Of a DNA stretch of 64,000 nt, positions 1,957 to 63,713 are shown piece after piece. Made by a program: the position numbers and the translations under genes. The stretch covers positions 1,378-65,377 of the forward strand of contig JAJTYJ010000001.1 of assembly GCA_021463485.1 (NCBI GenBank), given 5' to 3'. Position 1 is the first letter of the stretch, and every line of letters starts with the position of its first letter. The notes under the pieces are model-generated. The model saw only the letters and a list, made by a program, of their open reading frames with translations, was not told the origin of the DNA and did no database searches. The DNA is from a bacterium (GTDB taxonomy: Bacteria > Patescibacteriota > UBA1384 > 2-12-FULL-50-11).

Positions 1957-1985
1957 TTGACGCTGTGTAAAGTTTACTTTACATT
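1957..1985 (+). promoter_or_regulatory. Sigma70-like promoter of the HTH-Hsp20 gene (-35 TTGACG, 17-nt spacer, -10 TACATT)
   Basis: TTGACG is at 1957-1962 and TACATT at 1980-1985, with an exact 17-nt spacer. The ATG follows at 1999, so the leader is very short. Confidence 0.55.
1966..1983 (+). promoter_or_regulatory. 18-bp perfect palindrome TGTAAAGT-tt-ACTTTACA in the promoter spacer, overlapping the -10
   Basis: The sequence reads directly as an inverted repeat with 8-bp arms and a 2-bp centre. A near-identical copy occurs in the dnaK promoter at 63294..63311. Confidence 0.6.
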
Positions 1986-1998
1986 ATTCCTAGAAACG

Positions 1999-2697
1999 AT
2001 GACAAAATTTCGGTTATTACTTCGAGAACTGCGGCAAGCGAACGACTTGAGCCAAGAAGAATTGGCTCGAGCACTTCAGGTATCGCGACAGTCGATTATC
2101 TCACTTGAGCGCGGGGAGTATCTACCGAGTATGCCGGTACTGATCTCGCTAATTGAGTTTTTCGACTGTCCGATCGACCAGCTGATCGACGGCGTCTCAC
2201 CGAAAAATAATCAACAATTTGTAAACCAAATCGAGAAAGGGGGTGAAAAGCAGATGCAACTAACGCCATGGAGTCCGTTTCAAGCGATTGATCATATGCA
2301 AGAAGAGATGAATAGTATGATCGAACGAACGTTCGGTCGCGGAGATTGGTCTAACGCTCTACAAGCAACGACCGGTGCGATGAACATTCACGAGAGCGAA
2401 AAAGAGTACGAGATCGAATTCCAGGTTCCGGGTTACACGGAAAAGGAAATTACAATCGAGATGACCGAGAATACCCTAACAGTTTCCGGCGCCAAAGAAG
2501 AGGAGAAAAAAGAGGGTAAAGATGTTGTTCGACGAGAATGGCAACACAGCCAATTCAGACGCTCTATCCGCTTTACCCACCCGATCAAAGAGGATAAAGT
2601 CGAGGCGAAAATGGAGAACGGTACGCTCAAAATCATCGCTCCAAAAATAGAGCCAACAAAACCAAAAGTAAAAAAGATCGAAGTTAAGAAAGGTTAG
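1999..2697 (+). CDS. Fusion protein: N-terminal XRE-family HTH domain plus full-length Hsp20/alpha-crystallin small heat-shock protein
   Basis: The N-terminus 'MTKFRLLLRELRQANDLSQEELARALQVSRQSIISLERGEYLPSMPVLISLIEFFDCPIDQL' is a classic Cro/C1-type HTH. Downstream, 'LTPWSPFQAIDHMQEEMNSMIER' matches the sHSP N-terminal region and is followed by an alpha-crystallin domain ('EIEFQVPGYTEKEITIEMTENTLTVSG...REWQHSQFRRSIRF...ENGTLKIIAPK'). The ORF track begins at 1864, but the ATG at 1999 sits right after the promoter. Confidence 0.8.
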   Translation: MTKFRLLLRELRQANDLSQEELARALQVSRQSIISLERGEYLPSMPVLISLIEFFDCPIDQLIDGVSPKNNQQFVNQIEKGGEKQMQLTPWSPFQAIDHMQEEMNSMIERTFGRGDWSNALQATTGAMNIHESEKEYEIEFQVPGYTEKEITIEMTENTLTVSGAKEEEKKEGKDVVRREWQHSQFRRSIRFTHPIKEDKVEAKMENGTLKIIAPKIEPTKPKVKKIEVKKG

Positions 2698-3035: not shown

Positions 3036-3626
3036 TTATTGGTATCTACCTTCAACTCGCCAGCGCAACGGAATCATGGCACCAGATTTCATAATAGTTC
3101 CTCCGTCAGTATTCTCATACTTACCGTGTGCCCAGCCGTAAATTCCTGTAGTGGAGATGTTATTTGTGTTGGCGTTATTCATTCCACCTAGCACACCCTG
3201 ACCCCAAGCGTAACCGTGATTCTGAACAAAAAGATCAGCAGAATCAGGGTTAATAAGCTCAAATGTCCAACTGGTATGGGCTTGATCACCTTCAAACGCA
3301 ACTGCCCACAAGTAGTCTCTTGCCATTTGGCTACCCGCGCCACAAAGACCGTAATTTCTGTAACAGTCCGGCAGCGCTGGGAGTTTCCAGGTTGAAATGT
3401 ATTTAGGGACAGAGTTCTCCTCGTAAGTTACCTGCCACTCACCCGGTCCAATTGCAAACTTTTTCTTTGTTGTGCCTAGTTCCGTTCCAGGGTTGTTATT
3501 GACGTTGATCGTTAACAACTTCATCGCTTGCCATACGGTGTGAGTTGGTACGGCGGCAGAACCGATTCCAGGCGCGATCAAAAGTAACAATGATAATGCG
3601 ACTAAAATACTCGATTTATTCTTCAT
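3036..3626 (-). CDS. Secreted Trp/Cys-containing protein, paralog A of an uncharacterised family
   Basis: It has a signal peptide, 'MKNKSSILVALSLLLLIAPGIGSA'. Family motifs are FAIGPGEW, TWKLPALPDCY, AWGQG, GIYGWAHGKY and IPLRWRV. It overlaps paralog B by 11 nt. Confidence 0.7.
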   Translation of the reverse strand: MKNKSSILVALSLLLLIAPGIGSAAVPTHTVWQAMKLLTINVNNNPGTELGTTKKKFAIGPGEWQVTYEENSVPKYISTWKLPALPDCYRNYGLCGAGSQMARDYLWAVAFEGDQAHTSWTFELINPDSADLFVQNHGYAWGQGVLGGMNNANTNNISTTGIYGWAHGKYENTDGGTIMKSGAMIPLRWRVEGRYQ

Positions 3627-4236
3627 AGCTTACTCCTGTGACATCCCAACGAAGAGGAATCATAACACCCGACCATACGAAACCACCACGATCGCAGTTA
3701 CAGTATCTGGCGTGTGACCAACCGTACGTTCCAGTAGCGATCACATTGTGACTGTTGTCACTATTTTTTCCTCCCAGTACTGCCGAGCCTCGTACGTGGC
3801 TACTAATGTTTGAGAATAAACCGGGATTTAATGGCTCCAGTTCCTGAAATGACCATCTCTGAGGATCGTTTGGATAGTCGGAATAGCTCGTTGCTAGTCC
3901 CCATAAATAGTTATTCACCAGAGCACCGCCTGGCTGGCAGGCAGCGCGACCAGCAGAGGTGTAACAATCTGGTAGCGCCGGAAGTTTCCAAGTTTCCTCG
4001 TAAATTGGGGTGTAGTTGCCACCCGATGCCTGCCGTTCATATTTTACGTACCACTCGGATGGACCAATCACAAACTGACGCTTAGTTGTCTCTAGTTCAC
4101 CGCCGCCGTAGCCGTTCGTGTTAACGACTAGCACTTTTTTTGTTTGCCAGGTGGAACTTATATCCTGAGCGTTGACCGTTGCTACATTGCTCAAAGATAG
4201 GAAGATAGCACCGGCTGCTAACAATAGTTTAATCAT
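3616..4236 (-). CDS. Secreted Trp/Cys-containing protein, paralog B
   Basis: Signal peptide plus FVIGPSEW, TWKLPALPDCY, GTYGWSHARY, GGFVWSG and IPLRWDVTG. The ATGA overlap with paralog C indicates translational coupling. Confidence 0.7.
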   Translation of the reverse strand: MIKLLLAAGAIFLSLSNVATVNAQDISSTWQTKKVLVVNTNGYGGGELETTKRQFVIGPSEWYVKYERQASGGNYTPIYEETWKLPALPDCYTSAGRAACQPGGALVNNYLWGLATSYSDYPNDPQRWSFQELEPLNPGLFSNISSHVRGSAVLGGKNSDNSHNVIATGTYGWSHARYCNCDRGGFVWSGVMIPLRWDVTGVSYEE

Positions 4237-4868
4237 AAAATATCACCACTTACCTTCCATTCAGTTGGTAATAGAAAGCCTGCCCATACAAAACCACCAC
4301 GTCCCCCAACATTGTAGCGACCATGAACCCATCCATATGCGCCCATAAGTGACAAATTATGAATGTTTCGACCGTCTTTTCCTGATATTGTTCCTTGTCC
4401 CCAAGCTCGACCGTTATCCCTGATAAATAGCGCGGGATCATCGGGATTCATTAACCCAAACTTCCAAGTTCTCGCCGGACAGCTAGAAACGTTGGTATCA
4501 CAAACTATTCCCCAAATAAATTTTGAAACGTTCGCACCGCCAGGACTACAGCTGGCAGCGTCAGCATAACAATCAGGCATACTAGGCAATGTCCAAGTTT
4601 CTCTGTACTTCTCTACACCACTTTCAGAGTATGATACTGTCCACTCACCTGGGCCAATCGCAAAGTTTCGTTTACTCCTGCCGAGTTCGTTACCGACATT
4701 ACCCTGAGTATCGATAGTTAAAACTTTCGTTGCTCGCCAATCTTCAACGACGTCCGGGGCGGTTTGTGCGCTAATTCGAGAACTATTTTGGTTCGAATAT
4801 ATAAGAAAAACACCAAGCGCAGCTAATATAAATCCGAGAGTATATTGCAGTATAACTTTCCCTCCCAT
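4233..4868 (-). CDS. Secreted or anchored Trp/Cys-containing protein, paralog C
   Basis: N-terminal signal anchor plus FAIGPGEW, TWTLPSMPDCY, GAYGWVHGRY and GGFVWAG. Confidence 0.7.
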   Translation of the reverse strand: MGGKVILQYTLGFILAALGVFLIYSNQNSSRISAQTAPDVVEDWRATKVLTIDTQGNVGNELGRSKRNFAIGPGEWTVSYSESGVEKYRETWTLPSMPDCYADAASCSPGGANVSKFIWGIVCDTNVSSCPARTWKFGLMNPDDPALFIRDNGRAWGQGTISGKDGRNIHNLSLMGAYGWVHGRYNVGGRGGFVWAGFLLPTEWKVSGDIL

Positions 4869-4911
4869 GTCTCTTTTAATACTGTCGGATTTTAATGATT
4901 AGTCAAGCGAG

Positions 4912-5490
4912 CTACTCTATAGTAATTGATTGAATACTGTCACCAACTGAGATTTGTTTGACAACATCCATACCACCGGTGACTTTGCCAAAAATCGTGT
5001 AATTCTTTGGTAGCGAGTCGTTGTCGGCGAGCATAATGAAAAACTGACTGCTATTGGTATTAGGCCCGCGATTAGCCATAGCCAGCACACCTTCTTTGTA
5101 CCCGTTTTTATACGACGGCGTGTCCTCGTTTAGCTCATCTTCGAACTCTGATCCGTAAATTGAGGCTCCGCCGGTACCGTTACCGTCCGGATCGCCGCCT
5201 TGAATAACAAAACCTGGCTCAACCCGGTGAAACGTTAAACCGTCGTAAAAGCCGTTCTTAGCAAGCGTTGCAAAGTTTGTTACCGTTTTCGGCGCGTCTT
5301 GTGGATAAAGCTCCAACCGGATATCACCTTTTTTTGTTTTAATAGTCGCCTTGGTTGCAGAAACTTGTTCAAATGTTGTTGGATCACCTGTCATTTTTTT
5401 AACGCCTCCTTGTTTATCTTCTGACTGCGGAATTAGTAAAAATACGCCAACCACCGCTATAACACCGATAATGATATGTGTAATTTTCAT
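4912..5490 (-). CDS. Cyclophilin-type peptidyl-prolyl cis-trans isomerase with N-terminal membrane anchor
   Basis: N-terminal TM 'IIIGVIAVVGVFLLIP' followed by cyclophilin motifs 'FHRVEPGFVIQGGDP', 'GGASIYGSEFEDE' and 'FFIM'. Confidence 0.85.
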   Translation of the reverse strand: MKITHIIIGVIAVVGVFLLIPQSEDKQGGVKKMTGDPTTFEQVSATKATIKTKKGDIRLELYPQDAPKTVTNFATLAKNGFYDGLTFHRVEPGFVIQGGDPDGNGTGGASIYGSEFEDELNEDTPSYKNGYKEGVLAMANRGPNTNSSQFFIMLADNDSLPKNYTIFGKVTGGMDVVKQISVGDSIQSITIE

Positions 5491-5508
5491 TGTGCGCCCG
5501 TTCAGGAT
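5491..5508. repeat. 18-nt direct copy of the tRNA-Val 3' end (TGTGCGCCCGTTCAGGAT)
   Basis: It is identical to 5558..5575, which covers the tRNA-Val 3' acceptor strand and T-arm. It lies immediately upstream of the cyclophilin start codon, 48 bp from the tRNA. Confidence 0.6.
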
Positions 5509-5559
5509 AGTCGACTAACGTCGCCTTCCTTCACTCTAATACTTTTTATGTTTGTCATG

Positions 5560-5631
5560 TGCGCCCGTTCAGGATCGAACTGAAGACCCCTTCCACGTCA
5601 AGGAAGTGCTCTACCGCTGAGCTACGGGCGC
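5560..5631 (-). tRNA. tRNA-Val (anticodon GAC)
   Basis: The minus-strand sequence 'GCGCCCGTAGCTCAGCGGTAGAGCACTTCCTTGACGTGGAAGGGGTCTTCAGTTCGATCCTGAACGGGCGCA' folds by hand as a cloverleaf: 7-bp acceptor, GCTC/GAGC D-stem, anticodon loop TTGACGT, T-loop TTCGATC. CCA is not encoded. Confidence 0.8.
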
Positions 5632-5683
5632 CTGGCTAATTAACCAGTTAATTTTACTGAAAAATTAGTAGCGTGTGAAGTTG

Positions 5684-6337
5684 TTAGTTCGTAACCGTCC
5701 CTGTAACAGTCCACTTAAGAGGCATTAGCGTTCCGGAACCTAGGAAGCGAGCTCTACTATCAAAACCTGGCTCGTACCAGTGTTGGAACGTGTACGCACC
5801 GCTTTGCATAATACATTCATCTTCGTCGCCATTTCTTGGCGAAGAAATACAGCTAACAGTCTTTTGAGTGCCGGTACCGCCGTTTAGACGATTTTTCGTG
5901 CTAGTAAAGTCGTTTGGCGCTCGAACAGCAAACGTATAAAGCATACTATTTGTGCCGCCAAGAGCATTCTGTTGCGTAAAGCAACCCGCCATTATCTCAG
6001 CCGTGTTAACACCGCTTATATCGCAGCCCTTTTCGTCAGTATGAGCAAGCATCTGGATATTGGTAATACTCGGACCCGCCCATGTTTCGGTGAAGGTTTT
6101 CGAGCCAACAGTACCGGTGACAGTCCAGCCCCAAACACCGATCCCCGCTTGACCAACTTGCGAACTACCAACACGAACGTCAGCAGTTAGGACATTATTG
6201 GCCGTCCACGTACTTGTATACGGCGTAGTGCCCTGCGCAGAGGTTTTAACGTCCCCCTTAGACACGTAGAGCATCGCAGCGCCAGCCAGCGCCAAAACAA
6301 AACCAATTCCCATATGTAACAACGTTGTTCGATTCAT
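5684..6337 (-). CDS. Secreted protein, divergent fourth member (paralog D) of the same family
   Basis: Signal anchor 'MNRTTLLHMGIGFVLALAGAAMLYV'. It shares 'TW.ANNVLTADV' with 'TWQTKKVLVVNT' in the others, and its C-terminal 'GTLMPLKWTVTGTV' matches their 'MIPLRWDVTG'. Confidence 0.6.
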   Translation of the reverse strand: MNRTTLLHMGIGFVLALAGAAMLYVSKGDVKTSAQGTTPYTSTWTANNVLTADVRVGSSQVGQAGIGVWGWTVTGTVGSKTFTETWAGPSITNIQMLAHTDEKGCDISGVNTAEIMAGCFTQQNALGGTNSMLYTFAVRAPNDFTSTKNRLNGGTGTQKTVSCISSPRNGDEDECIMQSGAYTFQHWYEPGFDSRARFLGSGTLMPLKWTVTGTVTN

Positions 6338-7708: not shown

Positions 7709-9219
7709 TCTTTCACTAGCACACCGCTAGGAATCGCGGTTTTTTTGGTGACGTTAAAGACGGTAAATGGCTTATTAAATAACATACGCGTCTGCGAATC
7801 GATCGCCGGAATCGCCGAGAAAAATATGCCGCTAACCGGAAGCAGGATTGGCGCTAACAACCACTCTTTAATAATTGTAAGAATGTAGACCGAGCGCTTA
7901 CCAGGACGTGGTGGCACTAGTAGAGATGCCACGAGCATGTTGGCGATCATACCAGTCCACGCTGCTATCAGAAATGTTCTATAAACAGTAGGAAAGTTAT
8001 AACCGAGCACACTATCTCGAAAATCCGGGTTCACGACTATCGGTAGCCAACCGATTAGCAAAATAAACGACTGGGTAGCAAGCGAGTAGTGGGATTCGAA
8101 CAGCCGTAAAAATTGCAGCCATTTGTAGAAAAACGGAATTCTAGGATTACCAAAAGAATGCCGAAAGACGTACGGAACGTCGGAAACCCCCCAAAACCAG
8201 CGACGACGTTGAAGATACTGCTCGCGAAACGTGTCCATAATATCTTCGCCCTGAACTGCGTCCATATAAACCGGCACAAATAGCGGAACCACGTGGTGAT
8301 TGCCGTCAAATCTGAAGTACGAACGCCAGTACTGATGCCCATCTTCAACCACCGTCGCAACCGACCAGAAATCTGTTTGTACTAGGGCTTCGAAACTCTG
8401 AGCGTGGGCGGCGAAGTTACGCGAGTAGTGCGGTCGCATCGCCTGTATGAGTTGCCAGAATGATGAGCCGAGTGCTGTCAGTTTTACCGGTAACGGCACT
8501 TGCCAGATATTATTGAAAAACATCGGCAGGGGCTGGAAGCTTTTATGAATTGGGTCTGGGTCGGCGCAGTACGACCAAGTAAGGTTGGCAAAATAGTCAC
8601 GATCGACCCGGTTATCGGCGTCGAGTGTTGTGAGAATTGCGTCAGAATACTTAATTTTTTTCTCATCAAGATATTCCTTAACCCGACGCGCCGCCCAGGT
8701 AATGTTTGGCCCCTTGCCGCGAACTTCACCTTCAATATCTGCTGGGTGGCTGGTAGCCATAAAATGGAAAAACGCATGTTCGTACTCGTGCGTTAAGATC
8801 TTGGCATACTCCGGCGCTAACTCTTTTTCACGCCCTTCAAACGCCGCAACAACAATCAACCGATCAGCTGGGTAGTTGCTCATTTTTATGGCATCGATGG
8901 TGTGCCGAAGAATTGAGATATCCTCTTTATACGTTGGCACAATGGCGACGTGGTAAAACCTATTCTGTGCCTCGGGATAATCGTTGTTGAGTTTAGTTAG
9001 CCAATCAATTTTACGCTCACGGTTATATCTAGCAAAACCGGCTAGTAAGTATCCAGTGATGAGAAAGACTTTAATTAACCAGTAGATCGCGTAAAGCAAG
9101 ACTAGCATCGTTAGGACAGGCGGGTTAAAAATTGCAAGCAATATTAATCCAGTTAACGTCGTCCAGGTTAGTAATCCCGGAATAATCTCCCAAACTCGGC
9201 TTCGTTGATACCCCAGCAT
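7705..9219 (-). CDS. Processive family-2 glycosyltransferase (cellulose/chitin-synthase-like membrane GT)
   Basis: Multi-TM N- and C-terminal regions flank a GT2 core with 'ILTTLDADN' and the Q-x-x-R-W motif 'QRRRWFWG'. Confidence 0.75.
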   Translation of the reverse strand: MLGYQRSRVWEIIPGLLTWTTLTGLILLAIFNPPVLTMLVLLYAIYWLIKVFLITGYLLAGFARYNRERKIDWLTKLNNDYPEAQNRFYHVAIVPTYKEDISILRHTIDAIKMSNYPADRLIVVAAFEGREKELAPEYAKILTHEYEHAFFHFMATSHPADIEGEVRGKGPNITWAARRVKEYLDEKKIKYSDAILTTLDADNRVDRDYFANLTWSYCADPDPIHKSFQPLPMFFNNIWQVPLPVKLTALGSSFWQLIQAMRPHYSRNFAAHAQSFEALVQTDFWSVATVVEDGHQYWRSYFRFDGNHHVVPLFVPVYMDAVQGEDIMDTFREQYLQRRRWFWGVSDVPYVFRHSFGNPRIPFFYKWLQFLRLFESHYSLATQSFILLIGWLPIVVNPDFRDSVLGYNFPTVYRTFLIAAWTGMIANMLVASLLVPPRPGKRSVYILTIIKEWLLAPILLPVSGIFFSAIPAIDSQTRMLFNKPFTVFNVTKKTAIPSGVLVKD

Positions 9220-9574: not shown

Positions 9575-11614
9575 CTAGTACCTACTAAATAGACGCTGGA
9601 ATCTGCGGCCATTTGACGCCACGAGCAAGCCGAGCGAGCTTAATAGCACCGTGACAATATTCTGATGTTGGCTCGGTATCGAGCCAACAGGCTCCGGATT
9701 ACTGGTTTGGTTGGCGATCGGAGTAATTTTTTTAGTCGCGGCTGCCACTACAGCTGGCGCTGGAGTTGATTTTGAGACGGCCGGTTGAGTAGTTCTTTTA
9801 ACTGGTGCGGGTTGTGGTTTCGGCGACTCAGTTTTAGTTGTTTGCACCCTGCTAACTACGACTGATTCAGGAAATACCCAGGTCTCCACCGCCTCGCTGG
9901 CTGAATTCCAGTCGACGATCGCCGAAAACTGTATCGAGTCCCCCACGCTTAAGTATTTTTTACTCTCAGTTAGATGCGCTTTAATCCGCGCCAACTGAGA
10001 GCTAAGTGTAAAATAATCGCTCTCAACGTCGGTAGCTGTACTATTGAGCGCTACTTTTTCACCGAGTCGTTGCTGGAGTTCGTCTGACATTGAGACGTCC
10101 GCCGGATCGATAGTAGCAATCCCTCCAATTATCGCGTCATCTGGTGCGTCGATAATTATTCTTTTCGTTTGACTCGAGCTTAGCTCGCCGGTTACGAGCG
10201 CTGTTTTATCTTTAATATTTGGGATGACACCCTTGGTTCTACTTAAAAATACTTGAATACCAGCTGTTTGATCTTGTAGGTAAAATGCTTCGTCAGAAAC
10301 CTGCCCCTGATCGGCCGTCACAACACCAGATACCTCAAGGAGCGTCCCCGCTAACGCCAGACGCGCCTCACGAACAGAGAGTTGATGCGTTGGTTTCGTC
10401 GGAAGGGTTGCCCTAATCCAGCTAGTGAGCGTTGCCGTTCGATACAGATTGGGGGCCAAGCTGCTGTTTAGTAGTAGCAGAAAAACCTCTTGATTATGCT
10501 CCAGCAACGCTTTGAATTTTGCCGATCGAGCCCAAGAGCCATTACGCAGCGAAAAGCTTAGGCCATCTGCTGAGAACTGGATATCAGCGCTTTCGTATTT
10601 CCATAGCACAACACCACTACTTAGTTTATTAGCACGGTCGTAACCCGCCGAGATTGTAGCGGGCAGCCAACTGCCGAATTCTGTCGATAGCCAATGTTCG
10701 CTCCCGCTTTGAAAATACAGCCAGTTTGCACCTTCGACCGCCACTAATTCACCGCCCTCAGTTGGAGCCGCAGTTAGCTCTGGAATAGCCCGCCCGTAGT
10801 CTAACTCGTGTAATCGGCCTTCTATCTCTAGAAATACTCTACTCCCCAATGTCCTAGCAGAGAGTATCGGTGAGGAAATCGAGAGAGTGAGTTCGATCAG
10901 TTCGTTCGGCGTCAGAATTACGACGATAACGATATCAGTTTTCCCAACAAATACCGAGAGCGTGTCGGAGCTAGACAAGAGTGATAATTGGGCGCTGCTT
11001 AGCTGAATGAAGGTGTTGCCAGTAGAAAGCTGAAAGAGTTTGCCGTCACAAACGACTGTTGGCAACAGTGCAGTTACGCGAGTAACTTCTAAGCAATCTA
11101 ACTCGTCTAAGTTACTCCAGGCTTCCCCAGCCCAACCGAAAACCGTCACTTTACTAGCCTGTAGATCAAGATAATAAAATTGGTCGCTAGATAGATAAAA
11201 CTGATCTAATTTTGATCCGACAATCGGTTCTGTTATTTCAGTAAATTCACTCCCAGCATAAAACAGTATCTTATTGTTTGTCCGAACCAATAACGGTGCC
11301 TGGCGGCTATACTCCAGTATCGGCTCATCCATTAACCCGGGCACAGGATAATAACCGAGACCATCCTTTGATCGAAGTAGTAATTTCTCTCCGATCCTAT
11401 CCACCACAACAAATAGTTCCCCATTAATTAAGAACTGCTCTAAAACCGTCCCGTTAATAACAGCGAGCTGAAACGGCTTCGAATTTGCCCGTAAGCGATA
11501 CTGTTTTTCGCCAGCTTTGATCACTAGCTTATTTTCAACTCTTTCTAAATCGGCCGCCAACGAGACAGTTGGGAGAAAAAGAAAAAGGATGAAGAGCCAA
11601 ACTTGCCGCTTCAT
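9575..11614 (-). CDS. Large secreted surface protein with Pro-rich stalk and C-terminal TM anchor
   Basis: Signal peptide 'MKRQVWLFILFLFLPTVSLAAD', a Pro/Thr/Ser-rich linker near the C-terminus, and a final 'IVTVLLSSLGLLVASNGRRFQRLFSRY' hydrophobic segment with basic tail. Confidence 0.55.
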   Translation of the reverse strand: MKRQVWLFILFLFLPTVSLAADLERVENKLVIKAGEKQYRLRANSKPFQLAVINGTVLEQFLINGELFVVVDRIGEKLLLRSKDGLGYYPVPGLMDEPILEYSRQAPLLVRTNNKILFYAGSEFTEITEPIVGSKLDQFYLSSDQFYYLDLQASKVTVFGWAGEAWSNLDELDCLEVTRVTALLPTVVCDGKLFQLSTGNTFIQLSSAQLSLLSSSDTLSVFVGKTDIVIVVILTPNELIELTLSISSPILSARTLGSRVFLEIEGRLHELDYGRAIPELTAAPTEGGELVAVEGANWLYFQSGSEHWLSTEFGSWLPATISAGYDRANKLSSGVVLWKYESADIQFSADGLSFSLRNGSWARSAKFKALLEHNQEVFLLLLNSSLAPNLYRTATLTSWIRATLPTKPTHQLSVREARLALAGTLLEVSGVVTADQGQVSDEAFYLQDQTAGIQVFLSRTKGVIPNIKDKTALVTGELSSSQTKRIIIDAPDDAIIGGIATIDPADVSMSDELQQRLGEKVALNSTATDVESDYFTLSSQLARIKAHLTESKKYLSVGDSIQFSAIVDWNSASEAVETWVFPESVVVSRVQTTKTESPKPQPAPVKRTTQPAVSKSTPAPAVVAAATKKITPIANQTSNPEPVGSIPSQHQNIVTVLLSSLGLLVASNGRRFQRLFSRY

Positions 11615-12207
11615 CCTTCTTCGCCAACCAACGCCCGGTGCATCTCGAGGATCACGCGGGCAAGTCGATTCGGGTCGGGTACATCGGTGATAGTAAAGTA
11701 ACCTTGTAAGCCTGGTTTGTGCGGATCATCCGTGGTGCCGCCGCCCGCAGTTTCAACGATGAGTAAGCCGTAATTAAAGAAGCTTTGTAGAAACCCAGTA
11801 ACCTCAGCCGAGACGTTTTGAACTTGTTTTAACGATAGCTCAGAGGTTTTACGACTCAATAGCCCTTCTTGAGACACGTTAATTAGTCGCTCGTTGGTGA
11901 TAAAGATAATGTCGTAATAAAAATTAATCCACGAACCAAACAGAAACGTTAGCAGAAAGATGTAATAACCAGACAATAGCACGGTAATAATGGGAACGAA
12001 GTCCGACACTCCGTTAGTAAAGCCGATCCCGATCGCAAACAACAGAAAAAGTGGGAAGAGTCCCATCGCTAATACAATTAGTAGCGTTGTTAAAAAGCCG
12101 GCCCAGTGATGTCGCACGGCGTACTTAATTTCTTCTCCAGGATGAAGGTTAAGATACAAAAACGCTGGGTCGTTACTGTTTATATGTTCTTCGATTAGAT
12201 GCGGCAT
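11611..12207 (-). CDS. Membrane protein with bacterial PH domain (YdbS/YdbT-like, bPH_2)
   Basis: Two TM helices followed by 'FITNERLINVSQEGLLSRKTSELSLKQVQNV...YGLLIVETAGGG', which is typical of the DUF304/bPH_2 fold. Confidence 0.55.
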   Translation of the reverse strand: MPHLIEEHINSNDPAFLYLNLHPGEEIKYAVRHHWAGFLTTLLIVLAMGLFPLFLLFAIGIGFTNGVSDFVPIITVLLSGYYIFLLTFLFGSWINFYYDIIFITNERLINVSQEGLLSRKTSELSLKQVQNVSAEVTGFLQSFFNYGLLIVETAGGGTTDDPHKPGLQGYFTITDVPDPNRLARVILEMHRALVGEEG

Positions 12208-12398
12208 TACTTAATCCCGATATAAATACCGCTAAATATCAATATCAATAGCACCAAGAGTATATGTGTCGATAATACCGGTATCGAGGCATCGCCGGGC
12301 AAGCGGTACTTAAAAACCTGAAAAAAGTACAGCAAATTTACCACAAGCATAATCGCTAAAAATAGACCGTAGCCAATTAAGATGTAGCTATTAAGCAT
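12207..12398 (-). CDS. Small two-helix membrane protein
   Basis: 63-aa hydrophobic ORF in an ATGA overlap with the bPH gene. Confidence 0.3.
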   Translation of the reverse strand: MLNSYILIGYGLFLAIMLVVNLLYFFQVFKYRLPGDASIPVLSTHILLVLLILIFSGIYIGIK

Positions 12399-12399
12399 T

Positions 12400-13569
12400 T
12401 TACGGGCGGATGTATCGCGGTGTTCCCCAATTGCTTGGGTTTATTCTCCGCTGCGAGTATTTTTTAGCCGGACTCCAGTTATATTCCGAAACCAAGATAT
12501 CGCTTGACGAGTAGACAGCTTCGACAACCGCAACGTGTCCCCATTCGTCACCCGGGAATAGCGGTCGGTTCCAGGACACGACGTCACCGACTCGAGGCAA
12601 CCCGCCGTACTGGACTTTATACCCTTGATCTGTGGCTAGCGCCGGCCAGTTGTATGCACTACCGCTACCGGGTCTGGTGTTATTAAATGGTACTCCGTGT
12701 ATCTGAAGGAACTTCCATGCAGCATACGATGTACACTGACAAGTGTAGTACAGCCAGTTATCTACACGATCACAGCTACCTGCCCATGGGTATCCTCCTG
12801 TGCCACCGGAGTTAGTAAATCCGCCAGCAGCAAGACGCGCCTGGTAGATATCGTTACTAATTTGTGCAGATTGTTTTTTAATTTGCTCTAATAGTTCCTC
12901 ATATTTCGCCTGCTCACCCTGGGTTTGGTTGAGAAGGTAATTCTTTTGGTTTTTCTGACTCGTTAGCGTACCCCTTGATCGATCAAGCTCTTGTCGGAGG
13001 GTTTCGAGGCTTGCCTTTTGGCTTTCACTATCTGTTTTCTTCTTTTCGAGATCGGTCTTTAACGCGTTAACGGTGTCGATATTTTTTCGCAGATCAGTTT
13101 GAATCGCTTGGATATACTCCGCTTGCGAGAGCGCTTCTTCAAGATTAGGGCTCTGGAGTAATAACTCCATCGTACTAGTTTGTGAGAGCTGGTAGAGATT
13201 TACGTATGCGCCCTTGAGTTTAGCCGACAAGACATCAAGCTCAGTCTGTTGCTTCTGGATATCTTGAATCAAAAGATTAATAACACTATTTGTTGCCGCG
13301 ATTTGCTCTTCGGTGTTTTGAATTCGGCTTGAAGTATAACTAATGTCTCCATCCAGATCTCCAATCAACTCTCGCAAGTTACTTGCTTCTCGTTTTTTCT
13401 GCTCAAGGGCTTTTCGGTTTTGCTCTTCTTTTCTCTTTAATTCTGCTTGACGCCTTAGTAGCTCGTCGAGCGTCTCAGCTTGCGCGCTCATCGGCGCGAG
13501 CGTTGCAATTCCAAGCGTTAGTACGAGAAAAAAGCTAATAAGTCGCACAGCTAACGATTTACTCATCAT
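12400..13569 (-). CDS. PcsB-like coiled-coil peptidoglycan hydrolase with C-terminal CHAP domain
   Basis: Signal peptide, long coiled-coil and a C-terminal CHAP domain ('CQCTSYAAWKF...GHVAVVEAV'). It lies immediately downstream of ftsE-ftsX. The start is placed at the internal ATG (13569) after an AGGA motif, because the longer ORF would overlap ftsX. Confidence 0.75.
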   Translation of the reverse strand: MMSKSLAVRLISFFLVLTLGIATLAPMSAQAETLDELLRRQAELKRKEEQNRKALEQKKREASNLRELIGDLDGDISYTSSRIQNTEEQIAATNSVINLLIQDIQKQQTELDVLSAKLKGAYVNLYQLSQTSTMELLLQSPNLEEALSQAEYIQAIQTDLRKNIDTVNALKTDLEKKKTDSESQKASLETLRQELDRSRGTLTSQKNQKNYLLNQTQGEQAKYEELLEQIKKQSAQISNDIYQARLAAGGFTNSGGTGGYPWAGSCDRVDNWLYYTCQCTSYAAWKFLQIHGVPFNNTRPGSGSAYNWPALATDQGYKVQYGGLPRVGDVVSWNRPLFPGDEWGHVAVVEAVYSSSDILVSEYNWSPAKKYSQRRINPSNWGTPRYIRP

Positions 13570-57496: not shown

Positions 57497-58552
57497 ATGA
57501 GCGATGCTGTTGAGCTCGTCAAAAACCCTGTCGAATCTGCAAAAGAAGCTGGTTTGCGCTATTTTACCGACTCAAAACTAACAATCTCCCGCCTTAAACA
57601 CGGCGAAGGCTTTAGGTACGTAGATAAAGACGAGCAACCAATTACTGATAAAGAAACGATCGTTAGGATTAAGTCGCTAGTGCTACCGCCTGGCTGGACA
57701 AACGTTCGGATCTCACCAGTAGCTAACAGCCATCTTCAAGCAATTGGCGTAGATGAAAAGGGCCGCAAACAATACCGCTACCACCCCGATTGGCTTAAAT
57801 TTCGCGATCAAACCAAATACGACAAGCTAATCGATTTCGGCAAAGCCCTACCAAAAATTCGTACTCAGGTCTCAGAAGATCTCGCCAAGCACGGCCTGCC
57901 GCGCGAGAAAGTGTTGGCCACAATCGTTAAATTACTCGAAAAAACGATGATTCGAATCGGTAACGAGCAGTACGCTAGAGAGAATCAGTCGTACGGTTTA
58001 ACGACGCTCCAAAATCGCCACGTGGATGTCGGCACTCAAAAAGTAACGATCAATTTCAAGGGCAAAAGTGGGCAATTCCACACCATCGAACTCGAAGATC
58101 GCCGGCTTGCTCGTCTAATTGGCCGGCTTCAGGACTTGCCCGGCCAGGATTTATTCCAGTTTATCGACGAAGACGACAATCTCCACTCAATCGACTCATC
58201 AGACGTTAACGAATATATCCAAGATGCTGCCAACGACTTATTCACCGCCAAGGATTTTCGGACTTGGCGCGGTACCGTGTTAGCCGCCTGGTTTCTAGCA
58301 GACGCTGAGCGCGCCAGAAGCGAGCGAGAAAACAAGCGAATTGTTTCGCAGATTGTTAAAGAAGTCGCCAAAGAGCTCGGTAACACCCCAACAGTCTGTC
58401 GCAAGTGTTACATTCACCCAACCGTTATCGAAACGTTCTTGAGCGACTCTGGTCTAACAATTAAAGAAATTAACACCATTGAAATCGACACGGTCGATTT
58501 ACTGCCGGAAGAAAAAATTGTTTTAGAGTTCTTGAAACAAAATACGGCCTAG
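57497..58552 (+). CDS. Bacterial type IB DNA topoisomerase (poxvirus-like TopIB)
   Basis: 351 aa; 'GFRYVDKDEQPI', 'YRYHPDWLKFRDQTKYDKL', 'IRIGNEQYARENQSYGLTTL', 'FKGKSGQ' and C-terminal 'CRKCYIHP' matching the TopIB catalytic R-K-R-H...Y arrangement. Confidence 0.8.
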   Translation: MSDAVELVKNPVESAKEAGLRYFTDSKLTISRLKHGEGFRYVDKDEQPITDKETIVRIKSLVLPPGWTNVRISPVANSHLQAIGVDEKGRKQYRYHPDWLKFRDQTKYDKLIDFGKALPKIRTQVSEDLAKHGLPREKVLATIVKLLEKTMIRIGNEQYARENQSYGLTTLQNRHVDVGTQKVTINFKGKSGQFHTIELEDRRLARLIGRLQDLPGQDLFQFIDEDDNLHSIDSSDVNEYIQDAANDLFTAKDFRTWRGTVLAAWFLADAERARSERENKRIVSQIVKEVAKELGNTPTVCRKCYIHPTVIETFLSDSGLTIKEINTIEIDTVDLLPEEKIVLEFLKQNTA

Positions 58553-59152
58553 CTATCTATCGAGACTTTTAAGCTGTTCGTAAAGTTCGCGCTGCTCGCG
58601 AGTGAGGCGCTTCGGGATTTCGACGTGCAGCACAACAGTTAAATCACCACGACCGCGACGGGTTTGCTGACCCTTACCACGGAAACGAAAGGCCATACCA
58701 TCTTGGGCACCGGCAGGAATTTTTAACTCAATCTCATCACCAAAGTTAGTTTTAAATCGGACTGTATCTCCGAGCACTGCTTGGGGGATAGAGATGGAGA
58801 GCTGGACTTGAACCTGCGAGAACGCAGATTCAAATAAGTCCTCGAAAATTGAGCCAAAGCCGCCGGCCTGTCCGCCGAATCCCGCTCCAGAAAAATCAAA
58901 TCCGCCAAAACCTTGTCCGCCGGCCTGTCCGCCGAATCCGCCATGCGTTCCAGCGTGGCCGAACTGGTCGTACTGCGCTCGTTTCTGCGGATCCCCAAGT
59001 ACTTGATACGCTTCGTTTATTTCTTTAAATTTTTCGGCATCGCCACCTTTGTCTGGGTGTAACTTATGCGCCTTACTTCGGTAGGCTTTTTTAATCTCTG
59101 CTTCAGACGCAGTTTTTGAAACACCAAGAACGTCGTAATAGTCTTTAGACAT
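58553..59152 (-). CDS. DnaJ-like J-domain co-chaperone lacking the zinc-finger domain
   Basis: J-domain '[32 protein letters not shown]', a G/F-rich region '[22 protein letters not shown]', and a single C-terminal DnaJ beta-domain; no CxxCxGxG repeats. Confidence 0.8.
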
Positions 59153-59789
59153 AGTTAAGCTTTACTTTTCCATTGTGCACTACCAAGAAACTTGCCAGAC
59201 CTGGTCGTAAGAATATCCCAGAGTTAGCAAATCTAGTCGCCGCGTCAATCTCGGGGAGGTGGCTGTGTCCGCAAATTAACCACTTTTCTGACTTATTACT
59301 TTTATGCCAATTTTTCATCCTCTGGTTGCTGGTTTGGTATACATTTAGATATGGTCTCCCGATAAATCTTATTAGCAACCGTTCTAGTACTGAACCAAAA
59401 TACAAAATCCACTTAGGTAAGTTTGGATGTCGCATATCTAGCGTTGGATCGAGTAGATCGCCATGCGCAACGTAGAATTCTGTACCAGCTTGCGAAAACT
59501 CATAGCTCGTCGCTACTCTCTCGGAAAGAATTGAATAATCCTCTACGCTTTTCGGATCGTGGTTACCGAACAAATATACAGCGTTTTTCTGTTTAAAAAG
59601 CGGAAATAACTCTTTCCATCGAGAATCTAAAAATTCTTGCAGGCTCATGCCAAAACCTTCCCACAAATCCCCGTTAATTATTAGCTGATCTGCGTCCGAG
59701 ACAATATTCTTGATTAATTCAAATTTGGCGGGCTCAAACCGCTTTGTTAAATGTAAATCAGAAATAATTACTATTTTCTCGGTAGACAT
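59145..59789 (-). CDS. Calcineurin-like metallophosphoesterase
   Basis: 'IISDLHL', 'INGDLWE', 'LFGNHD' and 'CGHSH' metal-binding motifs. Confidence 0.75.
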
Positions 59790-59812
59790 CCAGCAATATT
59801 TTACCTCAAAAA

Positions 59813-59830
59813 AGTAAAGTTTGCTTTACG
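59813..59830. promoter_or_regulatory. Third copy of the GTAAAG-N4-CTTTAC palindrome (aGTAAAGtttgCTTTACg) in a 56-bp divergent promoter region
   Basis: On the plus side it lies 4 nt upstream of a TACAAT -10 (59834-59839) that would make the 59846 ORF leaderless. On the minus side it lies 10 nt upstream of a TAAAAT -10 (59798-59803) for the phosphoesterase/DnaJ-like operon. Confidence 0.45.
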
Positions 59831-59845
59831 TGCTACAATGTTTTT

Positions 59846-60076
59846 ATGAATGAAGTGCGAGAAGTTAATATCAACGTCCCGAAAAAAGCGATCGTTATTA
59901 ATAAATACGCCGAGAACGGCGGCGGCTGGATTTGGTGCTTAGGTTTTATCGGTGCCATCGTTTACTATTGGCAGAACGCCAACGGCTTTGGAGAATACTT
60001 TTTTGGATTTCTAAAAGCCTTGGTTTGGCCAGCCTATATGGTCTACGACCTGTTTAAGTTTTTGGGTGTTAACTAA
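59846..60076 (+). CDS. Small two-helix membrane protein, probably leaderless
   Basis: 76 aa; the ATG lies 7 nt after a TACAAT -10; hydrophobic segments 'WIWCLGFIGAIVYYW' and 'FLKALVWPAYMVY'. Confidence 0.35.
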   Translation: MNEVREVNINVPKKAIVINKYAENGGGWIWCLGFIGAIVYYWQNANGFGEYFFGFLKALVWPAYMVYDLFKFLGVN

Positions 60077-61328: not shown

Positions 61329-61368
61329 ACGGCTCGGTTTGGACTCGTTTCAACCGAGCCGTTTTTTT
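61329..61368. terminator. Rho-independent terminator (ACGGCTCGGTT...AACCGAGCCGT plus TTTTTTT)
   Basis: 11-bp stem followed by 7 T on the plus strand; the U-tract overlaps the dnaK stop codon. Confidence 0.55.
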
Positions 61369-63256
61369 ATTTTGTTTCTTTTGGCTCGTCTGAAGATGGT
61401 TCTTCGGACTTTTTCTCATCACCTGGAGCTGGATCGGCAGACTGTTCGTACATCGCTTGACCAACTTTTTGCATCGCAGATGAGAGTTTCTCTGCTTCGG
61501 CTTTAACTTTTTCGACGTCGTCGCCACCTAAGGCTGCACGTGTCGCGGTGATCGCATCTTCGACTTCGCGCTTATCTTCTGGTTTTACTTTGTCGCCGGC
61601 GTCTTTGAGTGATTTTTCGGCAGTGTGGATAAGAGCTTCGGCCAGATTGCGCTGCTCAACGAGTTCTTTTTTCTTTTTGTCTTCTTCAGCGTGTTTTTCG
61701 GCTTCAGCTTTCATTTTTTCGATTTCGTCGTCAGACAAACCGCTGGAAGACGTGATAGTAATTTTTTGCTCTTTGTTAGTTGCTTTGTCTTTGGCCGAAA
61801 CGTTAAGAATTCCGTTAGCGTCGATATCAAACGTAACTTCGATCTGCGGAACACCGCGCGGCGCAGTTGGGATGCCATCAAGATGAAACTTACCGAGTGT
61901 TCGATTGTCGCTTGCCATCGGTCGCTCGCCTTGTAGAACGTGAATTTCAACTGAGGTTTGATTGTCGGCGGCGGTTGAGAACGTCTCGGTTTTTGAAGCC
62001 GGAATCGTGGTGTTGCGGGCAATCAACGGTGTCATCACGCCACCTAATGTTTCGAGTCCGAGCGTTAGCGGCGTTACATCGAGTAAGAGAATATCTTTCA
62101 CTTCGCCCGACAGAACACCTGCTTGTAGCGCGGCGCCGAGCGCAACCGCTTCGTCTGGGTTGACACCCTTTGACGGCTCTTTTCCGAAAACTTCTTTAAC
62201 CGTTTCTTGAATTAACGGCATTCGGGTCATACCACCAACTAAAATAACTTCGTCGATATCGCTCTTCGAGAGCTTGGCGTCTTTAATCGCTGATTCGCAA
62301 ATGGCAACAGTTTTTTTGATGAGTTCGCCGGTTAGCTGTTCGAGCTTAGCACGGCTGAGTGTTGTAACTAAGTTTTTTGGACCGTCGGCATCGGCTGCGA
62401 TAAACGGCAGATTAATCTCAGCTTCCTGTGTGGTTGAGAGTTCGATCTTGGCTTTTTCAACCGCCTCTTTAATCCGTTGCATCGCCATCGCATCGCCGCG
62501 GAGATCCATACCTTCGGATTTGTTGAATTCTTCAACAACCCAGTCCATAACTTTTAGATCGACATCGTCTCCGCCTAGGTGGGTGTCGCCGTTAGTGGAA
62601 AGTACTTCGAAGCTCGACTCGCCGTCGGTTTCGCCGACTTCGATAATAGTGATATCAAACGTACCGCCACCGAAGTCATAAATCGCGATTTTCTGATCTT
62701 TTTTAGTTTCTTTACCGAGCCCGTACGCAAGTGCGGCAGCGGTTGGCTCGTTGATGATTCGTTTAACTTCTAAACCAGCAATAGTACCGGCGTCTTTAGT
62801 AGCTTGGCGCTGCGAATCGTTAAAATAAGCCGGGACAGTTACAACTGCGCCGTCGACTTTTTCGCCGAGATAACTTTCGGCGTCGGCTTTAATCTTAGCC
62901 AAAATCATCGAGGAAACTTCTTGTGGTGAGTAATCTTTGTCGCCCATTTTTACTTTGACAGCGCTGTCAGATTTAACGATTTTGTACGGCATAAGTTTAA
63001 TGTCACGCTGCACTTCGTCGTCTTCGAACTTGCGTCCAATTAATCTCTTAACTGAATAAATGGTGTTCTCCGGATTCGTAACTGACTGACGCTTTGCCAA
63101 CTGACCAACAAGTCGTTCGCCTTTTTTATTAATGGCCACGATTGATGGCACTAAATTTCCGCCTTCGGCGGTCGGGATCATTTTGGCTTTGCCGCCTTCC
63201 ATAACAGCCGCAGCTGAGTTAGTTGTTCCTAAGTCGATACCAATTATTTTACCCAT
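61367..63256 (-). CDS. dnaK: Molecular chaperone DnaK (Hsp70)
   Basis: '[22 protein letters not shown]', 'DLGGGTFD' and '[22 protein letters not shown]'. Confidence 0.95.
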
Positions 63257-63291: not shown

Positions 63292-63319
63292 ATTGTAAAG
63301 TTTCCTTTACATTTGTCAA
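63292..63319 (-). promoter_or_regulatory. dnaK promoter: -35 TTGACA, 16-nt spacer, -10 TACAAT (minus strand)
   Basis: Read on the minus strand as 'TTGACAaatgtaaaggaaacttTACAAT'. A GGAGG Shine-Dalgarno lies 6 nt upstream of the dnaK ATG. Confidence 0.6.
63294..63311. promoter_or_regulatory. 18-bp palindrome TGTAAAGTTTCCTTTACA in the dnaK promoter spacer, overlapping the -10
   Basis: It differs from the 1966..1983 element at one central position. The geometry is the same: the terminal TACA of the repeat is the first four bases of the -10. Confidence 0.6.
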
Positions 63320-63338: not shown

Positions 63339-63713
63339 TTGCCTCTGCGGGAGAATATGGTACAATTCTCGCACAACTGGAGGTGCACTTTGGAGTTGGG
63401 GCCGAATTCAAGGAGAAACTACGACTACTTCGTAGCGAACTTCCCACGACTGAGGCATTTTATCGAGATCACCTACTCGACTTGCCCACACAGGGCAACG
63501 CGCATGATCTTCGGGCTTCTCCGGGCAACCAGGTCGCCGGGCACGTACGATCCCACAATATCACGCATGAGTAATAACGAGATAATCTCGCCCGAGACCC
63601 GATCTCGTCTGGAAGAAGTCAGAGGAATCGGGGTGGGATGCGTGGTGCTCTTCGACGAGGTGACCAAACAGTGGCGAGAGGAATATCCCGAGGACTTTTC
63701 GTCGGAAGACTAA
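63339..63713 (+). CDS. Hypothetical protein divergent from dnaK
   Basis: 124-aa ORF with a TTG start (ATG at 63357), followed by a terminator hairpin. Confidence 0.3.
   Translation: MPLRENMVQFSHNWRCTLELGPNSRRNYDYFVANFPRLRHFIEITYSTCPHRATRMIFGLLRATRSPGTYDPTISRMSNNEIISPETRSRLEEVRGIGVGCVVLFDEVTKQWREEYPEDFSSED

Follow-up and report, generated by a model that had tools for sequence, protein, structure and literature searches.

What might be the function of a single bacterial gene that joins a DNA-binding domain to a complete chaperone? This question is raised by a 64,000-nucleotide stretch of DNA (hereafter the window) from a member of the Patescibacteriota (contig JAJTYJ010000001.1 of assembly GCA_021463485.1), wherein one open reading frame (ORF) encodes an N-terminal Cro/C1-type (XRE) helix-turn-helix (HTH) domain followed by an entire small heat-shock protein (sHSP). 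From comparative sequence analyses, it seems likely that this fusion protein is an autoregulated transcriptional repressor of a chaperone regulon. The parts of the gene are as follows, where aa denotes amino acids.

1999 to 2697, plus strand: full-length ORF of 232 aa, uninterrupted from the ATG at 1999 to the stop codon at 2695 to 2697, comprising the XRE HTH, a linker and the complete sHSP.
1999 to 2196, plus strand: Cro/C1 (XRE) HTH domain (aa 1-66), defined by Pfam HTH_3, by AlphaFold2 (AF2) and by invariant columns.
2197 to 2253, plus strand: variable linker (aa 67-85), of low conservation and with a predicted local distance difference test (pLDDT) value below 50 in AF2.
2386 to 2688, plus strand: alpha-crystallin domain (ACD; aa 130-230), defined by Pfam HSP20 and an AF2 beta-sandwich.
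2677 to 2685, plus strand: C-terminal I-x-I/V motif (IEV, aa 227-229), read from the sequence.
2717 to 2742, strand-neutral: intrinsic terminator GGCGCUC-aga-GAGCGCC, flanked by an A-run and a U-run and common to the convergent gene.

An initial annotation, made without database searches, had described this locus as one uninterrupted ORF for an XRE HTH and a complete sHSP. Pfam searches bear this out: residues 8-62 match HTH_3 (PF01381) with an E value of 4e-16 (59.1 bits; cut-off 23), and residues 130-230 match HSP20 (PF00011) with an E value of 2e-20 (73.2 bits; cut-off 20.8). NCBIfam searches give only sub-threshold matches, to Hsp18, Hsp14, IbpA and various XRE repressors and antitoxins. 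Direct reading shows an sHSP half with all of its parts: the N-terminal region MQLTPWSPFQAIDHMQEEMNSMIERTF that includes WSPF, the AKMENGTLKIIAPK motif of the ACD and, at the C terminus, I-x-V (KKIEVKK). A profile search aligns the WSPF-bearing N-terminal region (aa 86-125) with the N termini of free sHSPs. In sHSPs, dimers form through the ACD, and higher oligomers are assembled through the I-x-V motif and N-terminal region. Residues I227 and V229 are each at least 90% conserved among homologues. The recognition region of the HTH (SRQSIISLE.G.Y.PS) is invariant or nearly so among 112 sequences, wherein columns S29, R30, Q31, S32, I34, L36 and E37 are invariant and I33 and S35 are at least 90% conserved.

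Structure prediction by AF2 yields helices for the HTH at aa 1-66 (pLDDT 82-94) and a beta-sandwich for the ACD at aa 124-220 (pLDDT ~80-94), separated by a disordered region (aa 67-123; pLDDT <50) that encompasses both the linker and the sHSP N-terminal region. The predicted template modeling score (pTM) of the monomer is 0.43, and therefore the model assigns no fixed orientation to the HTH and ACD and is uninformative on a DNA-bound dimer. The solved structures nearest to the HTH are those of CylR2 (2xiu/1utx), which is a 66-aa dimeric repressor, and the relatives of the C-terminal half in the Protein Data Bank are sHSPs including wheat Hsp16.9 (1gme) and M. jannaschii Hsp16.5 (1shs), with E values down to 1e-11. 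The hairpin located 3′ of the stop codon has a folding energy of -18.5 kcal/mol (z -4.2), and because it is strong and is accompanied by A and U runs, the gene is taken to be monocistronic.

Such an architecture could be explained by an assembly join or a frameshift between two separate genes, as might be suspected from some database entries that are HSP20-only (148-179 aa) or HTH-only. However, a search of ~5.8 billion proteins yielded 131 homologues of the fusion protein, and the same uninterrupted ORF, with the HTH_3 plus HSP20 architecture in ~199-273 aa, recurs in over 100 distinct 90% clusters, and also in 28 genomes that were assembled independently. Named homologues derive from Candidatus Berkelbacteria, the Patescibacteria group and Saccharimonadales metagenome-assembled genomes. 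A profile search of 1.84 billion representatives gave 71 clusters at E ≤1e-30, and both domains are covered end to end in about 60-90 of the best 150 clusters (50% identity clusters). The 28 genome loci, which come from a scan of one genome per species, encode fusions of 31-96% identity and are mostly labeled Berkelbacteria, Saccharibacteria or Patescibacteria; the closest is from Patescibacteria bacterium BroJett034 (96% identity). We rejected the artefact explanation because of this conservation across clusters and loci, and its probability is practically nil.

The HSP20-only entries are themselves instructive (loci and proteins from our searches carry L and P numbers). One that was examined, P0095, proved to derive from an intact fusion ORF (L155, 1174-1868) for which the gene caller had taken an internal start, such that the HTH was dropped. 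Four others (P0094, P0096, P0099 and P0103) were entered in the same manner as plain 148-aa Hsp20 proteins, and public annotation lists the fusion proteins as Hsp20 family protein or as hypothetical protein. Gene callers and databases thus hide the HTH of such fusions, which is a systematic annotation error. Some natural variants are short (142-220 aa; L011-L014, L017, L028, L039, L051 and L100) and join the HTH almost straight to the ACD without the sHSP N-terminal region and without the internal Shine-Dalgarno (SD) and ATG discussed below. These may be pure regulators that serve as a natural control for the idea that the gene makes two isoforms. In the window and the 20-kb flanks of the 28 loci, the fusion gene appears to be the sole sHSP gene, as no second one of at least 80 aa was seen.

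If the fusion protein is a repressor that controls its own synthesis, where would it bind? The region preceding the gene carries three overlapping or adjacent elements.

1957 to 1962, plus strand: -35 hexamer TTGACG, from a promoter scan, whose TTGAC is kept at nearly all of the 28 relatives' loci.
1966 to 1983, strand-neutral: operator, an inverted repeat TGTAAAGT-tt-ACTTTACA with the core TGTAAAG-N4-CTTTACA, which fills the spacer and overlaps the -10.
1980 to 1985, plus strand: -10 hexamer TACATT, from the promoter scan, formed by the right arm of the operator and present as TACATT or TACAAT in relatives.

The promoter scan reports the same elements that the initial annotation had proposed (TTGACG, 17 nucleotides, TACATT), and the location of the repeat in the spacer and overlapping the -10 is likewise upheld, as positions 1966-1983 take up the spacer and the first four bases of the -10. 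The claim that the repeat is a perfect 18-bp palindrome stands only in part. Its 8-bp arms are perfectly matched, but the central TT breaks the symmetry, and because TT is not self-complementary the repeat is better classed as 8-2-8. The core shared with relatives is 7-4-7. The half-site centers are 11 bp apart, which fits a dimer positioned on one face of the DNA helix.

The 28 genome loci were found through the protein and thus independently of the DNA motif, and yet in all 28 the operator directly precedes the fusion gene and occupies the same place in the promoter, with an exact core in 27 and a single mismatch in L025. Almost always it begins 2-4 nucleotides past the TTGAC of the -35, and its right arm gives the -10. 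Besides these own-promoter sites, the ~550 kb that flank the 28 loci hold only two chance-like matches, each with 2 mismatches. Within the window there are three sites with no more than 2 mismatches, compared to 0.28 expected, and none of 100 shuffles reaches three; relaxing the limit to 3 mismatches adds one further site, which is at chance level. The sites are not randomly scattered, but reside in promoters of the fusion gene and, in the data described below, of dnaK, dnaJ, groES, grpE, clpB and clpP.

The operator also differs from those of the classical heat-shock systems, as had been proposed when the palindrome was first noted, in that it matches neither CIRCE, nor HAIR, nor the CtsR box. 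No copy of CIRCE (TTAGCACTC-N9-GAGTGCTAA) with 3 or fewer mismatches occurs in the window, and none with 4 or fewer in the 154 loci scanned (L157-L163 were outside that scan). HAIR (CTTGAGT-N7-ACTCAAG) has no match in the window at up to 3 mismatches, where 2.6 would be expected by chance, and the CtsR box (GGTCAAA-NAN-GGTCAAA) has four weak matches in the window compared to 2.0 expected, none of them near chaperone genes. All three were rejected as operators of the window because they are absent or occur at chance level. The fusion protein itself has no HrcA or CtsR family hit in Pfam or NCBIfam and no MerR hit in Pfam. At the grpE locus of the window genome and of seven relatives, hrcA is not adjacent to grpE, which is flanked by comEC, and in all of these genomes (the relatives being L157-L163) grpE is separated from dnaK.

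The remaining sites in the window lead to genes for other chaperones.

63292 to 63319, minus strand: dnaK promoter TTGACA-16-TACAAT with an exact operator TGTAAAGgaaaCTTTACA (63294-63311), in the same geometry as in the fusion promoter.
61367 to 63256, minus strand: dnaK (Pfam HSP70), a predicted regulon member.
59811 to 59838, minus strand: promoter-like TTGTAG-16-TACTTT with a weaker operator CGTAAAGcaaaCTTTACT (59813-59830, 2 mismatches), in the same relative position and preceding the metallophosphoesterase/dnaJ operon.
58553 to 59789, minus strand: operon for a metallophosphoesterase (59145-59789) and a DnaJ-like J-protein (58553-59152), with Pfam matches to Metallophos, DnaJ and DnaJ_C.
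59846 to 60076, plus strand: divergent small hydrophobic ORF of 76 aa that matches no Pfam family, with an extended -10 TGcTACAAT (59831-59839) located 6 nucleotides before its ATG.

Exact copies of the operator in the window precede only the fusion gene and dnaK, and the metallophosphoesterase/dnaJ operon is probably a member of the same putative regulon. The 76-aa ORF, which is also found at the same position in L157, is expected to be leaderless because its extended -10 ends 6 nucleotides before the ATG, and it may be co-regulated since the weak operator abuts its promoter.

Two data sets extend the association with dnaK beyond the window. In a blind test, seven dnaK loci of relatives (L157-L163) were picked from a protein search (72-82% identity to the window DnaK) solely by the length of their contigs and without regard to the operator; four of these contigs agree in length with contigs that bear the fusion. 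In every one of the seven, a TTGACA promoter contains an exact operator, which ends 35-156 nucleotides before the annotated start of dnaK. A site also precedes dnaJ in two of these seven loci, with 2 mismatches of the window type in L157 and as an exact copy in L160. Separately, metagenome contigs were scanned for the pattern TTGAC-N3/4-TGTAAAG-N4-CTTTACA, which returned at least 120 stretches that were sorted by their first downstream gene. Among the matches listed, this gene encodes DnaK in 19 cases (65-84% identical to the window DnaK), GroES (Cpn10) in 10, GrpE in four (L049, L055, L060 and L069), a ClpB-like protein (Clp_N plus AAA) in one and ClpP in one. Another 31 of the listed matches precede XRE genes, of which 20 have a detectable ACD, five are undecidable at contig ends and six are small and stand-alone. 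In L025, the fusion gene is immediately followed, in the same orientation, by a gene for a ClpB-like AAA+ protein of 887 aa (9956-13455), and the two probably share one operator-controlled transcript.

These distributions bear on whether the fusion protein acts only on itself. A purely local autoregulator would set the level of its own sHSP, and the sites at dnaK, groES and elsewhere would be bound by something else or be non-functional. The own-promoter sites are indeed the most uniformly conserved (28 of 28), grpE lacks a site in this clade, and XRE proteins are typically local regulators. However, a restricted role of this kind does not account for an exact operator of identical geometry at dnaK in the window and in seven of seven blind-picked relatives, for the listed metagenome sites at dnaK, groES, grpE, clpB and clpP, or for the near absence of operator copies elsewhere in ~550 kb. 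We consider local autoregulation alone to be very improbable, and favor a repressor that would act on its own gene and on a set of chaperone genes.

A second distinctive aspect of the fusion gene is that it appears to carry two signals for translation initiation. The first start, the ATG at 1999, has no SD sequence and in the window lies 13 nucleotides past the -10. Among 47 fusion genes, the mean energy of the duplex formed with the 16S ribosomal RNA tail at this position is -0.4 kcal/mol, and in about 30 of the 47 the first ATG is 5-13 nucleotides past the -10. The commonest distance is 6 nucleotides, and therefore transcription is predicted to start on the A of the ATG. By this reasoning the fusion mRNAs are leaderless or near-leaderless. 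The second start is located within the ORF, where it is predicted to give a free sHSP of 147 aa from the same mRNA.

2238 to 2246, plus strand: internal SD AGGGGGTGA, 7 nucleotides before the internal ATG, with a duplex energy of -11.9 kcal/mol with the 16S tail.
2254 to 2697, plus strand: predicted short isoform, a free 147-aa sHSP that starts MQLTPWSPF (ATG 2254-2256), based on the SD-ATG signal and on sHSP alignment.

An in-frame internal ATG is present ~6 codons before P-W-(S/R)-P-F in 38 of the 47 fusion genes, and each of the 38 genes with that methionine has an SD core (GGAGG, AGGAG and similar) before it. The mean duplex energy of the internal SD is -10.4 kcal/mol, compared to -2.1 at 7863 control codon positions, of which 2% reach -8. 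The residues encoded by the SD vary by lineage (KGGE, EGGE, NKEA, DKED, RKEN, AREA, SGGI, NEED and others), and the purine core and spacing are kept. Of 16 Gly-Gly pairs at this site, 13 are encoded by GGA-GGT and three by GGG-GGT, compared to the 7.6% expected for GGA-GGT from the use of Gly codons elsewhere in the same genes. When stand-alone sHSPs of a representative library are aligned with the profile, their first residue falls on position 86, the internal methionine, and it was this internal start that the gene caller picked in L155.

That coincidence with the N terminus of stand-alone sHSPs is also what would be expected of a fusion scar, and the internal SD-ATG could be an unused fossil of the joining of an XRE gene to an sHSP gene, with only the full-length protein being made. 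In the closest relatives, moreover, the KGGE residues could be under selection at the protein level. However, the SD signal persists in lineages at ~31-35% protein identity, where the GGAG(G) core is retained at its usual spacing despite different upstream residues, in a linker that is otherwise free to change in length and sequence. The preference for GGA-GGT among Gly codons likewise argues against a fossil, which we regard as unlikely, and we retain the two-product reading of the gene.

How might a protein of this composition regulate transcription? From the patterns described above we infer that the protein binds DNA, represses transcription and responds to stress, that the internal start is used and that the two products co-assemble, and the most economical model is a titration loop. 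Two HTH domains would be held together by a dimer or oligomer of the sHSP ACD, and the paired HTHs would bind TGTAAAG-N4-CTTTACA. Because the operator overlaps the -10 and the spacer, a repressor seated on these sigma-70-type promoters is expected to shut out RNA polymerase. Its targets would be its own gene, dnaK and probably the dnaJ operon here, and also groES(-groEL), grpE, clpB and clpP in relatives. One mRNA would yield a little full-length repressor from the leaderless or SD-less start and free 147-aa sHSP from the internal SD-ATG, and the free sHSP would co-assemble with the repressor via the N-terminal region, ACD and I-x-V motif that the two share.

Unfolded proteins would draw the sHSP moiety, both fused and free, into sHSP-substrate assemblies, upon which the repressor would leave the DNA and the regulon would be induced. 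A temperature-dependent shift in the oligomeric state of the sHSP could be an additional or alternative trigger. When DnaK and ClpB have cleared the substrates, the repressor would be freed and would rebind, making a chaperone-titration feedback loop whose sensor is present in cis. The predicted targets DnaK, DnaJ, GrpE and ClpB are the machinery that processes sHSP-bound substrates, and GroES/EL and ClpP complete the predicted set.

The sHSP portion might instead be a mere scaffold for dimerization or oligomerization of a real repressor that is constitutive and does not sense stress, with induction brought about by other means, for instance degradation of the repressor by ClpP or Lon, or its dilution. 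Many XRE regulators have a C-terminal domain that serves only for dimerizing, fusion variants that lack the substrate-binding N-terminal region exist, and the presence of clpP and clpB in the regulon would suit a proteolytic loop. On the other hand, the sHSP is complete in most members, where the conservation of the WSPF region and the I-x-V anchor goes beyond the needs of dimerization, the predicted targets are precisely the chaperones that handle sHSP-bound substrates, and the conserved internal start would supply free sHSP from the same mRNA. A simple scaffold therefore seems quite unlikely, and a repressor whose sHSP moiety senses unfolded protein is the reading that we prefer.

Several observations nevertheless weigh against a chaperone regulon governed by the fusion protein in the manner just described. 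The third operator site of the window departs from the core by 2 mismatches and comes with a weak -10, and all of the groES sites are from genomes other than that of the window. The grpE gene of the window genome, located just past the window end (L152, 8879-8940), has no operator upstream, nor do those of the seven relatives (L157-L163); because grpE lacks an operator in these eight genomes, regulon membership must vary between lineages. About nine of the 47 fusions have a short linker with no sHSP N-terminal region and no internal start, and therefore the two-isoform feature is not universal. The binomial probability of the GGA-GGT bias (P ~1e-12) was computed with related sequences counted as independent, and its true significance is lower because the lineages are not independent. 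In addition, about 35 of 122 listed metagenome matches lie at operons for DUF2178-like membrane proteins rather than at chaperone genes, and therefore outside these lineages the palindrome alone does not identify heat-shock genes. A separate small XRE encoded in the same genome, in this or other members of the candidate phyla radiation (CPR), could in principle be the actual binder.

The membrane-protein operons merit closer consideration because of the regulator that they encode. Their first genes specify proteins of 130-155 aa with a full or weak match to DUF2178 (e.g. L047, L052, L053, L064, L067, L085, L093, L104, L122, L127 and L131), and in 25 of 34 membrane-first loci a 60-90-aa XRE of the same HTH subfamily lies downstream on the same strand. 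The HTH profile built from the fusions matches these small XREs at E 1e-10 to 1e-18. They share with the fusion a homologous HTH (SRQ[ST]I[IV].[LI]E.G) and an identical promoter/operator (TTGAC-N3/4-TGTAAAG-N4-CTTTACA). Unlike the 232-aa fusion protein, whose gene is monocistronic and has no membrane-protein partner, they carry no ACD, and their own sites precede membrane-protein operons and not chaperone genes. The G+C fraction of the DUF2178-like loci is 0.28-0.67, compared to 0.29-0.54 for the chaperone and fusion loci.

A DUF2178-like membrane protein together with a small XRE apparently constitutes a widespread, autoregulated and uncharacterized type of operon. The small XREs are probably the evolutionary source of both the DNA-binding module of the fusion and its site. 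The Patescibacteria lineage would then have joined the small-XRE HTH to an sHSP and put the corresponding operator into chaperone promoters. The occurrence of the same operator at small-XRE operons outside the CPR supports its predicted assignment to the HTH of the fusion protein. A screen of ORFs of at least 80 aa, covering the window and the 20-kb flanks of the 28 loci, found no second XRE of this subfamily. In Glutamicibacter (Actinobacteria; loci L029 and L030, 9436-9470), tandem TGTAAAG-containing repeats that resemble half-sites occur ~550 bp upstream of an XRE gene whose product has 52-54% identity to the HTH.

The proposed system resembles the known heat-shock repressors in outline and differs from them in its parts. 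The short list of known bacterial heat-shock regulators comprises sigma-32, HrcA, HspR, CtsR and RheA. HrcA depends on GroEL for activity; HspR is a MerR-type repressor that uses DnaK as co-repressor, according to a titration model; and CtsR and RheA are repressors with intrinsic thermosensors, of which RheA controls the sHSP gene hsp18. Like HrcA with CIRCE, the fusion protein would regulate negatively through an inverted repeat located in the sigma-70-type promoters of dnaK and groES, with feedback via chaperone availability. However, its XRE HTH and ACD are unrelated to HrcA and its operator is unrelated to CIRCE, and its chaperone module is an ATP-independent sHSP fused in cis, whereas the GroEL used by HrcA acts in trans.

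HspR with HAIR, CtsR and RheA are likewise dedicated heat-shock repressors that are often autoregulated, and titration and direct thermosensing are the two mechanisms proposed here. The fusion protein differs from HspR and CtsR in having neither a MerR nor a CtsR domain, and we know of no chaperone domain within HspR, CtsR or RheA. Relative to canonical sHSPs of the Hsp20/IbpA family, the fusion has the same complete N-terminal region, ACD and C-terminal I-x-V, and its predicted short isoform is an ordinary 147-aa sHSP, but the long isoform additionally bears an N-terminal DNA-binding domain.

The closest functional parallel may be that of Escherichia coli IbpA, which represses translation of the ibpA and rpoH mRNAs and is titrated by aggregates (PMC10410725; bioRxiv 10.1101/2020.04.20.050740). 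In both cases an sHSP would be the sensor, and its sequestration into aggregates would relieve the repression of heat-shock genes. The two differ in that IbpA acts post-transcriptionally and itself binds mRNA, whereas the fusion would act at chaperone promoters through a dedicated DNA-binding domain.

A full-text literature search found no description of an XRE-sHSP fusion, of the operator motif or of heat-shock regulation in the CPR, and DNA-binding fusions are not mentioned in a 2021 review of bacterial sHSPs. The earlier statement that no characterized XRE-sHSP heat-shock regulator is known agrees with this outcome. Heat-shock repressors that bind an operator and receive feedback from chaperones are a known concept; what is new here is the protein family, the arrangement of the sensor and the two-product gene. 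More broadly, and only tentatively, we suggest that these proteins could represent a previously unrecognized class of heat-shock master regulator that replaces HrcA or sigma-32 in much of Patescibacteria. Such a class would use an sHSP as a cis-fused sensor and one leaderless mRNA for both the repressor and its co-assembling free chaperone, and operator occupancy would report the load of unfolded protein on the sHSP pool.

If correct, this would add a new family to a short list of heat-shock regulators and would reveal a new way of sensing, with an ATP-independent holdase coupled directly to a DNA-binding domain as a transcriptional counterpart of the mRNA-based aggregation sensor IbpA. The CPR/Patescibacteria radiation is very large and mostly uncultured, and our search found no description of chaperone control in its members; TGTAAAG-N4-CTTTACA would be a ready marker for the regulon when reading CPR metatranscriptomes. 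A small soluble protein and an 18-bp site could also make a compact biosensor of protein misfolding for synthetic biology. The conserved internal start would be a clean natural case of one gene making a regulator together with its effector or partner.

Other features of the window were noted in passing. A small ORF, 69 aa as called, resides between grpE and dnaK on the opposite strand (63339-63713, plus strand, in the window; 9544-9753 in L153) and has no family hit. A type IB topoisomerase gene (57497-58552, plus strand; Pfam Top1B_N_bact and Topoisom_I), which is identical in L152, adjoins the dnaJ operon. Directly upstream of the fusion gene and divergent to it is a gene on the minus strand (1037-1813) for a 258-aa protein that is extremely rich in low-complexity Asn/Thr/Ser/Gly repeats and has one hydrophobic segment. 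Four tandem paralogues on the minus strand (3036-6337) encode secreted or membrane-anchored proteins of 196-217 aa that form a lineage-specific expanded family. Three of these (3036-4868) share motifs such as WKLPALPDCY and GAYGW.HGRY, and the fourth (5684-6337) has diverged and is without them.

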